A stretch of 64,000 nucleotides of DNA from an uncultured Gemmatimonadales bacterium (GCA_963697755.1 CAVOPE010000008.1:513788-577787), one strand, 5' to 3'. Positions 27,156 through 46,147 are shown, counted from the first letter of the stretch. Notes: generated by a model from the letters alone, not told the origin. Made by a program: numbers and translations.

Positions 27156-27228
27156 GGCCAGGTAGCTCAGTTGGTAGAGCAGCGGACTGAAAATCCGCGT
27201 GTCGGGGGTTCGATTCCCTCTCTGGCCA
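27156..27228 (+). tRNA. tRNA-Phe (anticodon GAA)
   Basis: 73 nt, GGCCAGGTAGCTCAGTTGGTAGAGCAGCGGACTGAAAATCCGCGTGTCGGGGGTTCGATTCCCTCTCTGGCCA. It forms a cloverleaf with anticodon loop CTGAAAA, and CCA is not encoded. Confidence 0.95.
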
Positions 27229-27334
27229 TTCTAAGTAAATCCCTCGCACCCAATCGCTTGCCCAATCTAATGCTCCCCCGATAAGCGAAGGTTACGACGT
27301 GGCTTACTAGCGTTCCCACGGCGCGGCAGGCACA

Positions 27335-30300
27335 TTGCAGACACTCCTACCTGGCCGTTCCGTGACCGCAGTAGTCCCACCGCTGGCCCAGGCCCTCCGC
27401 GATCGCTACGTGCTCGAGCAGGAACTCGGGCGTGGCGGCATGGCCACGGTCTACTGCGCCCGTGACCTCCGACACGACCGGCTGGTCGCCCTCAAAGTTC
27501 TCCATCCCGAGCTCGCGGCGACACTGGGCCCCGAGCGCTTTCTCCGGGAGATCCGACTCACCTCCCGCCTGCAGCATCCGCACATTCTTCCAGTCTTCGA
27601 CTCCGGCGGTGCGGCCGGCCAGCTCTGGTACACCATGCCGTACGTCCGCGGAGAGTCGCTCCGGGACCGCCTGCGGCGGGAGGTTCAGCTGCGGATGGAC
27701 AGCGCACTGGACATCACCAGGCAGGTGGCGGACGCACTGGGATACGCCCACAGGCAGGGCATCGTCCACCGAGACGTCAAGCCGGAGAATATCCTGCTCG
27801 AAGGCGAGCGCGCCGTTGTAGCCGATTTCGGCATCGCCCGGGCGCTGGACCTGGCCGGGGGCGAGCGGCTCACCCAGACGGGCCTGGCTCTGGGAACGCC
27901 CTCGTATATGAGTCCGGAGCAGGCAGTGGGGAGTCCTGCGGACGCGCGGAGCGACATCTATTCCTTGGGATGTGTGCTCTACGAGATGCTCGCAGGCGAG
28001 CCGCCGTTCACTGGTCCGACCGCACAAGCGATCATGGCCAGGCGACTGAGCTCCCCGGTTCCCACTCTCCGCACCGTTCGGGAAACCGTGTCCCCGGCAG
28101 TCGAGCGGGCGATCGAAGTCGCGCTCGCCAAGGTGCCGGCCGACCGGTTCGCAACGACCGACGAGTTCGTTGCGGCGCTGAATGCGGCCGGCCCAAGCGA
28201 TGCAAAGCCCTCAGCTGCCGTCCGCGGCATCCCGCGGCGCCGGGTCGCCATCGCGGGAGGGATCGCCGTTGCCGTAGTCGCGGCAGCTCTCGGCCTGCAG
28301 CGGTGGTCGACGCCAGCCATCCACCCGGATACCGGCCTGGTGGCCGTGGTTCCGTTCCGGATCGCGAGCAGCGACTCCTCGCTCGCTTACCTCCACGAAG
28401 GCATGGTCGACCTTTTCGCGGCGAAGCTCAACGGAGAGGCAGGCCCGCGGTCGGTGGACCCTCGCTCAACCATGCGGCTTTGGCGCGCCGCCGCCGAAGG
28501 AAGAGCCGACTTGCCGGAAGCGGAGGTTCTGCGCCTGGCACGCCGGCTCGGGGCGGGCCGGCTTTTGACCGGCAGCGTGATCGGCACATCCGAGCGGCTG
28601 GTGCTCAGCGCCGCCGTGCTCGACGTAACCACCGGCAGGACACAGCTGCAGGCGACCGTGGACGGACGCTACGACAGCCTGCCGTATCTCGTCGACCGGC
28701 TCACGGGCCAACTGTTGGCGCTCGGAGCCGCGGTCCAATCCCAGCGGCTCAGCAGCCTTACCAGCACGTCGCTCCCCGCCATCCGCGCTTACCTGGCCGG
28801 CCAGGCGGCCTTCAGGAAGGGGCGGTTGGAGGAAGCGGTCCAGCGGTTCAACGAGGCTACCCAACTGGACTCCACATTCGCCCTGGCAGGGATGGAGTTG
28901 GCGCACGCGGCGGGTTGGCTTCTCAGTGGAGGTGAGGATGCGCAGGCGCGGGGACTGAGACTCGCTGTGGCCGGCCGCGATCGTCTGGGCCAGGGCGACC
29001 GCGCGCTGCTGGAGGTCAGCATCGGGCAGTGGTCCGGCGCTCCTGACATGTTTCAGAAGTGGCATGCCGCCGCCTCCGCCTACCCGGGACGCCCTGAAGT
29101 GTGGTACGGTCTAGGGGACTCGTACTTCCACTGGGGCCTGCTGGCCGGCATGAGCGACCCGCTGCGGCGTGCGGGCGAGGCCTTCCGTCGAGGCTGGCAG
29201 ATCGACTCCAGCAGCACCAGCGATTCCATGCTCCCCAAGCAGTCTCCGGTGTTGGCCGAGCCACTGGGTCACATGGTCGAACTAGCTCAGATCGCAGGAG
29301 ATACCGCGGAGGTCCGCAGGCTCGTCGCGCTAGGCTTGGCGGTGGATTCGACCGACCGGTATCTCCAATGGCACCTGGCCGTCAGCCTGGGCGACTCGGC
29401 ACGGCGTGCATTCTGGGCCAGGCCCGATCTTCCCGACGGGGTCTTCAGCATTATTGGCATGTTCACCTCCTGGACCGGAATCGCCGCCAGCGACGGCGCG
29501 CGCGCGAGAACCGAGGAGTTTCGTCGATTGAGGCGCAAGAACCCAGACGTCGCCGGGTTCGTTGGGCGCGGAACGGCGCTGAACGCCGGCCGACCGAAGG
29601 AAGCGTACCGCCATCTCGACGAGCGGCATGCGCCGTCCAGGCAAGTGCTTCGGTTGCAGGTCTTAGACGCCCTCTATTGGGGCGGGGACACCAGCGCCGC
29701 CATCGAGGCCGTCCGCCGGCTCAGGCCCTTTGCCGAGGCAGGTGCAATGCGCGGAGACGAAGCACGAGAGCAATACCACGCTCTCTGCGTCGTGGCTCAG
29801 TGGCGCCTCGCGCGCGGTGAGACCCAGGGTTCCGACATGGCGATCCGGAGGCTCCGCGCCACCACCGTACCCGGACTCGCCTCGGCCGATCCAGCAGAGT
29901 TCGCCCGCTACGCCGCCCTCTGCGCCGGCGTTGCCGAGGCGCTGCAAGCCGCGGCGCTCCATCGGCCGGACGTCCGGATGCGGACCGAACGGCTCGACTC
30001 CCTCGCCCGGACCTTCATCTTCGAGGTCTGTTGTGGGCAGTCGGTTCCAGGAGTGAACCTGGTCCTTGCACATCTTTGGGAAGCGCAGGGGGATCTCCCT
30101 CGGGCGCTCCAGGCGGTGCGCCGGCGCGCGGCGGGCTACGGGCTCGCCCCGAAGCTCATGTCCACCTTCTTGCGCGAGGAAGGCCGCCTCGCCGCGTTGG
30201 TGGGCGAGCGTGCGGAGGCCATCCGAGCCTACCAGGATTACCTCGCGCTGCGGCCCGATCCCGAGCCGTCAGTCAAACCCGAGGTCGAGCAGGTGCGGGC

Positions 30301-30337
30301 GGACCTGGCCGATCTGATCGGCGAGCGGGGCAAGTGA
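27335..30337 (+). CDS. Serine/threonine protein kinase with large C-terminal TPR-like region
   Basis: 1000 aa with Hanks kinase motifs GRGGMATVY, VALK, HRDVKPENIL, DFGIA and SPEQ, then a TM segment and helical repeats. Confidence 0.9.
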   Translation: MQTLLPGRSVTAVVPPLAQALRDRYVLEQELGRGGMATVYCARDLRHDRLVALKVLHPELAATLGPERFLREIRLTSRLQHPHILPVFDSGGAAGQLWYTMPYVRGESLRDRLRREVQLRMDSALDITRQVADALGYAHRQGIVHRDVKPENILLEGERAVVADFGIARALDLAGGERLTQTGLALGTPSYMSPEQAVGSPADARSDIYSLGCVLYEMLAGEPPFTGPTAQAIMARRLSSPVPTLRTVRETVSPAVERAIEVALAKVPADRFATTDEFVAALNAAGPSDAKPSAAVRGIPRRRVAIAGGIAVAVVAAALGLQRWSTPAIHPDTGLVAVVPFRIASSDSSLAYLHEGMVDLFAAKLNGEAGPRSVDPRSTMRLWRAAAEGRADLPEAEVLRLARRLGAGRLLTGSVIGTSERLVLSAAVLDVTTGRTQLQATVDGRYDSLPYLVDRLTGQLLALGAAVQSQRLSSLTSTSLPAIRAYLAGQAAFRKGRLEEAVQRFNEATQLDSTFALAGMELAHAAGWLLSGGEDAQARGLRLAVAGRDRLGQGDRALLEVSIGQWSGAPDMFQKWHAAASAYPGRPEVWYGLGDSYFHWGLLAGMSDPLRRAGEAFRRGWQIDSSSTSDSMLPKQSPVLAEPLGHMVELAQIAGDTAEVRRLVALGLAVDSTDRYLQWHLAVSLGDSARRAFWARPDLPDGVFSIIGMFTSWTGIAASDGARARTEEFRRLRRKNPDVAGFVGRGTALNAGRPKEAYRHLDERHAPSRQVLRLQVLDALYWGGDTSAAIEAVRRLRPFAEAGAMRGDEAREQYHALCVVAQWRLARGETQGSDMAIRRLRATTVPGLASADPAEFARYAALCAGVAEALQAAALHRPDVRMRTERLDSLARTFIFEVCCGQSVPGVNLVLAHLWEAQGDLPRALQAVRRRAAGYGLAPKLMSTFLREEGRLAALVGERAEAIRAYQDYLALRPDPEPSVKPEVEQVRADLADLIGERGK

Positions 30338-30494
30338 GCAACGAGTTGACGCGGCCTCGTGCAGCTGGACTTAGGTTCGCAGCAACATCCACAGATCAGA
30401 GGTCGGTTACAGCCCATGAGCCTCACGTTGAGAGCGGTGGCCGAGCTGCCGCCTTGCCGTAGCCCTTCGAGTGGGCACTGCAGGGAGAGGTCTC

Positions 30495-45836: not shown

Positions 45837-45892
45837 GCGCCGGGCAAACGGGCAGTACTACGCGGTGCAGATTGACCGCACTCCTCTTACCG

Positions 45893-46035
45893 GATCTAGT
45901 ACCTGAGTCGTACCTGAACTCCTCATTCCTAGAGGGTTCTCGCCGGTACGGGGCGACTCCGTGGGGAACCGTAAGTCGTTGCTCGAAGGCGCCTAACCGA
46001 TCTCCGCGGTTCTCAGCGAATCAGCCGCTGACACC
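45893..46035 (+). repeat. 143-nt island right-arm repeat, copy 2
   Basis: See 33669-33811. It holds the same position relative to the att repeat. Confidence 0.75.
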
Positions 46036-46078
46036 CTGAAAATCCGCGTGTCGGGGGTTCGATTCCCCTCTCTGGCCA
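46036..46078 (+). repeat. tRNA-Phe 3' fragment (att repeat 4), one extra C
   Basis: ctgaaaatccgcgtgtcgggggttcgattccCctctctggcca. It is followed by a terminator, so it is probably the ancestral tRNA 3' end. Confidence 0.85.
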
Positions 46079-46101
46079 TTCAACTCGATCGTTCACTCAC
46101 G

Positions 46102-46147
46102 GCGGCAACGAGTTAGCCTGGTCGGGCTCGTTGCCGCTTCTTTCGTT
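46102..46147 (+). terminator. Rho-independent terminator
   Basis: An 11-bp perfect stem, gcggcaacgag / ctcgttgccgc (46102-46112 / 46127-46137), is followed by ttctttcgtt. Confidence 0.75.

Follow-up and report, generated by a model that had tools for sequence, protein, structure and literature searches.

A tRNA-Phe gene as a probable integration hotspot, with island remnants on both sides, in an uncultured soil Gemmatimonadales bacterium

The tRNA-Phe gene and its displaced fragments

The DNA analysed here (the window) is a stretch of 64,000 nucleotides (nt) from an uncultured soil Gemmatimonadales bacterium, and all positions count from its start. Its single tRNA gene is tRNA-Phe(GAA), and the 42 nt at the 3' end of that gene (copy 1, 27187-27228, CTGAAAATCC...CTGGCCA) recur four times downstream, delimiting four segments that we call islands 1 to 4 (Table 1). 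Copies 2 and 3 are identical to the gene, copy 4 agrees with it at 39 of the 42 positions, and copy 5 carries one additional C within a CCC run; successive copies start 6625, 2706, 8213 and 1305 nt apart. In all of them, identity with the tRNA extends from C32, the first base of the anticodon loop CTGAAAA, to the discriminator A. Within the 64 kb the block is confined to the tRNA-Phe locus, where every further copy lies downstream in direct orientation, and 100 dinucleotide-preserving shuffles contain no match to it. Upstream of the gene lies a fragment of the opposite kind, a displaced tRNA-Phe 5' end, and between this fragment and the intact tRNA sits the remnant of a further element, here called element X. 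An earlier note on this DNA had described the four downstream copies, whose positions and identities stand; it had overlooked element X, the integron cassettes in islands 2 and 3, and the contig-specific nature of the extra C in copy 5.

That last point emerges from three sister contigs, found by exact-protein look-ups in one set of metagenome assemblies of the European Nucleotide Archive (L001/L004, ERZ25039583 contig_36024; L002, ERZ25039510; L005, ERZ25039536 contig_1140). Similar look-ups with the PP2C protein, the window's integrase, the UPRTase and the 356-residue protein yielded nothing of further use. In L004 and L005, copy 5 is a perfect 42/42 match, and copy 4 has two mismatches (40/42) rather than three. 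The extra C, which is present in the window, is therefore specific to the window contig or an assembly error, as is one of the copy 4 mismatches. Beyond copy 5 lies a hairpin (46101-46138) with a 13-bp stem (dG -24.6 kcal/mol, z -3.4), followed by the U-rich tail UUCUUUCGUU; its loop exceeds 8 nt, and a simple terminator scan had therefore passed it over. The terminator that the earlier note had placed after the outermost copy is thus borne out, and copy 5 with this hairpin is probably the original 3' end of the tRNA-Phe gene, as the note had also proposed, because homologues of the adjoining 356-residue gene lie directly downstream of tRNA-Phe, at 550-600 nt, in two more distant species (L044, L056).

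All segments are also compositionally foreign. Core G+C content (GC) is 71.3% and that of the foreign segments 61-67%, and the tetranucleotide distance of every segment exceeds that of all 200 size-matched core chunks, in a comparison of the kind that the earlier note had proposed. We consider it likely that the locus is a tRNA-Phe integration hotspot, in which four island remnants devoid of integrases stand in tandem 3' of the gene and a single decayed element lies 5' of it. The boundary at C32, a partly filled allele in sister strains, the foreign composition and the integrases of relatives all support the serial integration at the anticodon-loop sublocation that the earlier note had put forward.

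Table 1. Features of the tRNA-Phe locus, in window order, with GC where it was calculated
Feature	Position	Strand	GC (%)	Remarks
Promoter-like site	25506-25534	+		TTGGCC-17-TATATT; probably the native tRNA-Phe promoter, left before the displaced 5' fragment
Displaced tRNA-Phe 5' fragment	25544-25571	+		3 upstream nt and positions 1-25; left junction of element X
Element X remnant	25572-27155		62.7	Methyltransferase open reading frame (ORF), truncated integrase, spacer now preceding the tRNA; not in L001/L002/L004
S-adenosylmethionine-dependent methyltransferase ORF	25631-26542	-	~54 (local)	Methyltransf_11, E 2.8e-15
Tyrosine recombinase remnant	26213-27115	+		Catalytic R, H-x-x-R and Y motifs kept
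Direct repeat	27106-27123	+		CACGGAAT, 2-nt gap, CACGGAAT; overlaps the integrase stop codon
tRNA-Phe(GAA), intact	27156-27228	+		ARAGORN, Rfam; 5' part apparently from element X, 3' 42 nt = copy 1
Island 1	27229-33811		67.2	6583 nt; polymorphic in the population
Ser/Thr kinase-TPR gene	27335-30337			Island 1
CarboxypepD_reg/TonB-type outer-membrane barrel gene	30471-33646			Island 1; split into two overlapping frames
Island 1 right-end arm	33662-33811			GTACCY pair at 33675, 33686
Copy 2	33812-33853	+		42/42
Island 2	33854-36517		62.0	2664 nt
ArsR-AHSA1 cassette unit	34111-35253			Island 2
attC	35206-35358	-		R''/L''...L'/R'; in model training set
Lysine/alanine-repeat histone-like gene	35594-35956	-		Island 2
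Island 2 right-end arm	36255-36517
Copy 3	36518-36559	+		42/42
Island 3	36560-44730		61.3	8171 nt; for the most part a decaying array of integron cassettes, lacking intI; also holds small ORFs
Conserved flank	36560-36767	+		GTACCY pair at 36591, 36602; ends in minimal palindrome GTCTAAT-ACCA-GTTAGAC, after which cassettes begin
RibD_C cassette	36795-37322			Island 3
Short attC	37310-37364	+		Outside training set; E 8e-6
attC half-sites, R''L'' side	38404-38425, 44329-44350
460-residue ORF	38490-39872	-		Island 3
Isochorismatase cassette	40847-41494		44	Island 3
attC	41900-42056	+
Polysaccharide deacetylase ORF	42102-42911			Island 3; truncated
attC half-sites, L'R' side	42487-42510, 42903-42926
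attC	43347-43490	+
attC	43936-44087	+
Copy 4	44731-44772	+		39/42 (40/42 in L004, L005); then 13-bp hairpin 44803-44835
Island 4	44773-46035		63.6	1263 nt
PP2C-type phosphatase gene	44913-45836			Island 4
Island 4 right-end arm	45886-46035			82% identical to island 1 arm; GTACCY pair at 45899, 45910
Copy 5	46036-46078	+		43 nt; probably the gene's original 3' end
Intrinsic-terminator-like hairpin	46101-46147	+		13-bp stem, U-rich tail
1.4 kb 3' of copy 5			64.1

Presence and absence of the proximal segment

Two of the sister contigs (L001/L004 and L002) lack exactly window positions 25572-33811 (8240 bp), that is, element X, the window's tRNA gene and island 1. Their own tRNA-Phe is intact and consists of window 25547-25571, AGCGGA and 33812-33853, joined base-for-base to island 2, and in L001/L004, as in other species, the upstream sequence that carries the promoter-like site (25506-25534) precedes the intact tRNA. 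Of island 1, the third contig, L005, has no less than the rightmost 3 kb (from window 30852), and it follows the order of the window to 51490 with 99.6% identity. Around the site the sister contigs are more than 99% identical, with at most 10 mismatches per kb beside it. The proximal island is still polymorphic in the population, present in some strains and absent in others, and the partly filled allele that the earlier note had suggested seeking in relatives is thus found. Relatives that all shared the full arrangement, a prospect the note had raised, are not what these contigs contain. Islands 2-4 are present in all four contigs (the window and its three sisters), and for these islands the support comes from comparison across species only.

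The 8240-bp difference cannot be assigned to one insertion event. Its outer junctions (tRNA positions 1-25 and 32-73) do not overlap, and host positions 26-31 are absent from both; the junctions share no sequence, and therefore a single conservative recombination cannot yield the arrangement. Two direct-repeat pairs are needed, one of 28 nt around element X and one of 42-44 nt around island 1, and the junctions thus imply two separate events, as far as they can be read from the sequence. Farther to the left (window 14900-25500) strain divergence is mosaic, reaching 5-8% at 20-24 kb in L001 and 10-15% at 15-18 kb in L002 and staying below 1% elsewhere, a pattern that indicates frequent homologous recombination in the population.

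Since the copy at 25544-25571 forms the 5' part of the working gene in the empty allele, the window's intact tRNA appears to owe its own 5' part and the spacer upstream of it to the inserted element X. What is left of the element's integrase ends 40 nt upstream of the intact tRNA-Phe on the same strand and is 60-69% identical to integrases of 365-400 residues; about 95 N-terminal residues are gone, and an internal double frameshift places positions 233-280 of the profile hidden Markov model (HMM) in the frame of 26619-26981. With 43.6 bits against TIGR02249, whose cut-off is 265 bits, the remnant falls below the integron-integrase threshold. The methyltransferase ORF meets or runs into the truncated integrase 5' end, and its true start is probably further downstream. 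The CACGGAAT repeat might serve element X as an arm-type or regulatory site, and the spacer with this pair is conserved beside close integrase homologues: L086 has a full-length homologue (P0003) with this spacer and then the start of tRNA-Phe behind it, and in L003 a homologue and the spacer precede a tRNA-Met-like 5' part that stops after the anticodon loop. In distant relatives of this integrase (30-46% identity) the arrangement is mostly a classical one: either the integrase gene and the tRNA converge, or the tRNA immediately precedes the integrase gene.

An integrase of a family different from that proposed for the 3' side, with its gene immediately upstream of the spacer and the tRNA 5' part, would thus have inserted element X in mirror image, displacing the native promoter and positions 1-25 to 25544-25571, and the element would afterwards have shed the greater part of its body along with the N-terminal end of its integrase. 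A comparable arrangement is seen in another species (L051), in which a 5' fragment (positions 1-45) lies 1.1 kb upstream of tRNA-Phe and a 3' fragment 4.8 kb downstream. No integrase of the element X family was found at the orthologous loci of 80 species, and no 5' fragments were found within the sequence examined near three loci in which an integrase is followed by tRNA-Asp (L139, L142, L143). We favour later trimming of a much-decayed element as the probable cause of the stop at position 25 in the window's 5' fragment; alternatively, the crossover may have taken place in the D-loop.

Island ends, integrases and integron cassettes

The ends of the islands resemble one another. Positions 33662-33843 and 45886-46067 are 82% identical, the 150 nt preceding copies 2 and 5 end in TGACRCC, and the first 29 nt after copies 2 and 3 are alike. 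A similar end is found on an island in another species (L040), with 93.9% identity over 49 nt across the junction with the 42-nt block. The motif GTACCY, found only 29 times in all on both strands of the 64 kb, forms pairs 11 nt apart: one lies 137 nt ahead of each of copies 2 and 5, and another 32 nt beyond copy 3. GTACCY-like repeats also follow tRNA-Phe in L009 and L048. We take the GTACCY repeats to be candidate arm sites. The 150-nt arm common to islands 1 and 4 has no match to a structured RNA in Rfam at gathering thresholds or at E up to 1.

Together these features suggest a family attachment site on the element (attP) in three parts, a left arm with the GTACCY pair and the TGACRCC core, the 42-nt tRNA copy, and a right arm. 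A tyrosine integrase would exchange strands inside the 7-nt anticodon loop, so that the incoming element supplies a new 3' part of the gene and the old 3' end is pushed to the element's far end. Repetition of this step, or the import of pre-assembled tandems, would produce the observed order of tRNA, island 1, copy 2, island 2, copy 3, island 3, copy 4, island 4, copy 5, terminator and native neighbour. The attP junction pattern TGACRCCCTGAAAATCCGCGTG has 0 matches in IMG/VR viral contigs.

Integrases were sought by Pfam scans of the larger ORFs, by tblastn, and with an unfiltered profile HMM of 86 integrases run on all six-frame ORFs of at least 40 residues in the whole window. None of the three methods detected one in islands 1-4, in agreement with the earlier note, and the unfiltered HMM found no integrase pseudogene fragments in the 18.7 kb of islands; the sole recombinase of the window is the element X remnant, outside the islands. 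Full-length integrases convergent with tRNA-Phe are present in related species (L039, L166, L167, L168), and intact elements of the sort that the note had suggested seeking in the assembly thus exist at this tRNA in relatives. L039 and L167 lie at the same UPRT/Beta-CASP locus and L166 in a different chromosomal neighbourhood; the integrases of L166, L167 and L168 are 87-91% identical to that of L039, and in a further locus (L169) the integrase lies beside an HTH_17 gene. An identical 395-residue integrase (P0122) stands next to tRNA-Phe in L166 and L167, whose chromosomal neighbourhoods differ. This occurrence in two neighbourhoods is direct evidence that the L039-type element moves between genomes. 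The arm between tRNA-Phe and the integrase gene of L039 contains a TTGTACC motif, and on the strength of this motif an L039-type element could have built the array in the window.

The island integrase genes would then either have been lost or never have been there, the elements having moved in trans. In its strong form the second possibility holds that the islands are satellites flanked by attachment (att) sites, of the type called CIME (cis-mobilizable element), that never encoded an integrase and were moved by an L039-type enzyme. The lack of any integrase pseudogene fragment, the retained GTACCY arms and the precise presence or absence of island 1 in near-identical strains despite its lack of an integrase would all fit such satellites. 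We nevertheless regard this alternative as unlikely, as the cargo resembles decayed mixtures of truncated cassettes and split genes rather than compact satellites, and the inspection was confined to the 64-kb window.

Islands 2 and 3 owe much of their cargo to a second recombination system, that of integrons. Repeats in 37300-44400 have the layout of attC sites (GCCTAAC ... GCATGCAGCCGAC ... GCAGCTGATGCGC ... GTTAGGC), and four full sites align and fold with R''/R' and L''/L' stems, bulged bases, a variable centre and seven compensatory pairs. A covariance model trained on these four finds five sites in the window, one of them outside the training set. The array has at least two attC sites of R''-L''...L'-R' form, closely spaced and accompanied by short ORFs, which is the definition of a CALIN (cluster of attC sites lacking integron integrases). 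At least 22 contigs, with differing gene surroundings, encode a protein identical to the AHSA1 of island 2. In ten of them (L170-L179) the model has 44 matches, all but two weak ones on the strand opposite the gene, and on most of the ten they recur every 0.5-0.7 kb; the shared unit corresponds to window 34111-35253, at 97-99.6% nucleotide identity. Because the same unit occurs in many different attC arrays, the ArsR-AHSA1 pair is a single mobile integron cassette, whose genes are antisense to the array direction. The polysaccharide deacetylase ORF of island 3 matches no more than positions 3-64 of a Pfam domain with 124 positions and is cut short by an attC half-site (42903-42926), and is hence a truncated cassette. 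Islands 2 and 3 consist largely of integron cassettes, several of them truncated, from a pool shared among soil bacteria. No intI was found in the window or in the searched tRNA-Phe loci (L004-L085, L001-L002), among which only L039 has a recombinase, of phage type, and no PF00589 is listed in the precomputed Pfam calls for the ten cassette contigs.

The attC sites and cassettes between the copies, together with GCCTAAC 46 nt before copies 2 and 5 and GTTAGCC after copy 3, raise the question of whether the 42-nt blocks are integration scars at all, or instead integron recombination sites, a tRNA-derived dispersed repeat or local duplications. We judge this highly improbable. The blocks begin precisely at the anticodon loop, a perfect tRNA is restored in the empty allele, there is no 42-nt block among the Rfam or attC-model matches, and the restriction of the block to direct copies downstream of this one gene, noted above, is not what such repeats would give. 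The specific proposal that the tRNA fragments are parts of integron cassettes is rejected, since the ten contigs with dense attC sites and the ArsR-AHSA1 cassette contain no such block.

We therefore return to integration at tRNA-Phe, within which the cassettes suggest a further step. In a different species (L016) an ArsR-AHSA1 cassette (99.1% identical) follows the conserved tRNA-Phe flank; GTCGCAGTCTAATACCAG|TT is common to L016 and the window, and beyond G|TT the window has the RibD_C cassette and L016 has ArsR-AHSA1. In a third species (L009), attC and an isochorismatase cassette (96% identical) occupy the equivalent place beside tRNA-Phe. Between species whose core proteins agree at about 85%, cassettes agree at 96-99%. 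The palindrome at 36742-36774 is a weak match to the attC model (E 0.01) with no intI nearby, and may resemble the simple site of attI1. As first cassettes differ at G|TT between the window and L016, with a third in L009, and cassette identity exceeds that of the core, the arm of about 200 nt after the tRNA-Phe core might end in an attI-like G|TT cassette-recruitment site, making the elements integrase-less mobile integron platforms that are served by IntI in trans and moved by a tRNA-Phe integrase. Such a platform, though quite doubtful as yet, would couple two site-specific recombination systems. The identity with L009 covers the first 0.7 kb of the isochorismatase cassette (window 40183-40894) and reaches only the start of the gene.

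Related loci and known systems

The locus was compared with 80 species-level genomes, nearly all labelled Gemmatimonadales, gathered via relatives (69-89% identical) of the Beta-CASP/RMMBL gene that lies on the minus strand about 3.4 kb left of the tRNA (22329-23720). In 48 of the 80 loci tRNA-Phe is on the same side of the Beta-CASP gene, many of the 48 having homologues of the intervening UPRT, 149-residue and ResA-like genes, and in the majority of tRNA-Phe loci no fragment lies nearby, over distances of up to 9 kb. Islands between tRNA-Phe and a perfect displaced fragment are found in L040 (3.5 kb, with a kinase gene) and L048 (9 kb). In the latter, the right end of the island, comprising the histone-like gene and the arm, is 93.5% identical to the end of island 2, and the displaced fragment is followed by the same flank as copy 3 of the window. 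This flank directly follows the intact tRNA in L013, L016, L051 and L055. Eleven of the 48 loci end less than 500 nt after tRNA-Phe (L012, L024, L030, L035, L041, L047, L050, L057, L058, L070, L082), which suggests that the site breaks short-read assemblies across the order, through repeats or strain variation.

Several observations weigh against a simple series of integrations at this site. Islands 2-4 show no polymorphism among the four contigs, and element X and island 1 are always both present or both absent in the sampled contigs, with no intermediate seen. None of the islands has an integrase, the candidate for the acting enzyme coming from other species only. The displaced 5' fragment ends at position 25, whereas the 5' block in L051 and L003 reaches about 43-45. 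A decay gradient from proximal to distal copies is not supported either, as copy 5 is perfect in the sister contigs and copy 4 has two changes. In L048 the end of island 2, copy 3 and the flank that follows recur together as one conserved block (91-93%); given this block and the four species in which the flank adjoins the tRNA directly, island 3 could be a neighbourhood of long standing, passed on vertically, and not a recent insert, and some junctions may have arrived pre-assembled. Finally, the assemblies contain indel errors and split genes, and single frameshifts are uncertain.

A related possibility is that the array, or parts of it (islands 2 and 3; element X, tRNA and island 1), was imported as a composite, by recombination between the outermost att sites (accretion-mobilisation) or by flanking homologous recombination, in which case fewer than four integrations took place here. 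The conserved block in L048, the mosaic strain divergence, which is typical of homologous recombination, and the co-occurrence of element X and island 1 speak for such an import. Its junctions would still need the same number of site-specific events somewhere, however, and the flanks of L002 beside the indel are nearly identical to those of the window, with no imported flank visible; we hold composite import to be somewhat unlikely. The earlier claim that the hotspot has been used at least four times and every element since stripped therefore survives in part: the junctions are those of serial integration, but the events may have been fewer at this site if composites were imported, and islands that were stripped look the same as islands that never had an integrase.

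Serial integration into tRNA-Phe, the reading we prefer, would make the locus an instance of a kind of system already known, through Islander arrays, tycheposon-built islands and integrase-less att-flanked elements. Genomic islands in tRNA genes and their tandem arrays are said to have been defined by Williams in 2002. The window shares with Islander arrays an intact tRNA with fragments in the same orientation (four 3' fragments downstream and one 5' fragment upstream, all on the + strand), partial tRNA copies between islands, restoration of the gene, and what would be an anticodon-loop-centred crossover, with all 3' copies beginning at C32. Islander contains 3919 islands, 3760 with 3' fragments and 159 with 5' fragments, and 125 tandem arrays, only four of which have three or more islands (PMC4383910). 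The window differs in having four islands in tandem and one tRNA gene used at both ends by two integrase families. It differs also in that no 3' island has the integrase that Islander expects in each, so that its filters would reject all four; with att repeats at their bounds and no recombination or transfer genes found, they are better named integrase-less att-flanked remnants.

Tycheposon islands of Prochlorococcus grow by repeated integration at the tRNA, which moves older elements outwards and leaves partial tRNAs and degenerate elements behind, and heterogeneity is highest beside the tRNA (bioRxiv 10.1101/2020.12.28.424599). The window is alike in that only its proximal island is polymorphic, whereas the phylum and the integrase families are different ones. 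The window showed no replication or packaging module of the tycheposon kind, though no search aimed at membership was made. Site-specific accretion and CIMEs are reported from streptococcal integrative and conjugative or mobilizable elements, and tandem ssrA islands reportedly from Dehalococcoides; the window's islands resemble CIMEs as integrase-less, att-bounded elements in tandem with related elements, but lack conjugation or mobilisation genes. The CALIN, an attC cluster without an integron integrase, was reportedly described by Cury and colleagues in 2016. Like a CALIN, the window has five model-supported attC sites, one weak match, four half-sites, small promoterless ORFs and no intI; unlike one, its array is embedded in and split by tRNA-Phe att junctions, with one part inverted, and the GTCTAAT-ACCA-GTTAGAC site about 200 nt after the tRNA fragment is the point of divergence into different first cassettes in two species.

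The locus is a clear but ordinary example of a tRNA landing pad and leaves mechanistic understanding unchanged. It points to the same island building as in enterobacteria, streptococci and Prochlorococcus, now in an uncultured soil phylum with almost no mobile-element genetics, and offers a compact case of one tRNA gene apparently targeted at both ends by two integrase families, with cassettes inside tRNA islands. It is useful for annotating Gemmatimonadales metagenome-assembled genomes, whose short-read contigs often break here, and island finders that require an integrase would miss all four islands.

Some further features of the cargo and its neighbours are of separate interest. The kinase-TPR gene of island 1 is recurrent cargo next to tRNA-Phe (L031, L038, L040, L048, L051, L055; 44-68% identity). 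Its kinase domain strongly matches PD-T4-6 models in PADLOC (E 1.6e-92), but such models match any Hanks-type kinase, and we do not claim a defence role for it. The barrel gene, split in the window, is called as one 1050-residue gene in L005, where it runs off the end of the locus; the split is either a true frameshift or an assembly error. The histone-like protein of island 2 has 120 residues, is rich in Lys and Ala with KRAL/KKRA repeats, and is similar to histone H1 and AlgP. Its gene is built of 15- and 27-nt tandem repeats (35606-35895), and a homologue with 86% identity marks the right end of the tRNA-Phe island in L048. Beyond the last tRNA fragment, the 356-residue gene (46294-47364) is of low GC (64%), has no family match and contains a 39-nt proline-rich tandem repeat (46438-46515); it is followed by a gene for a 1005-residue CHAT/TPR protein (47531-50548).

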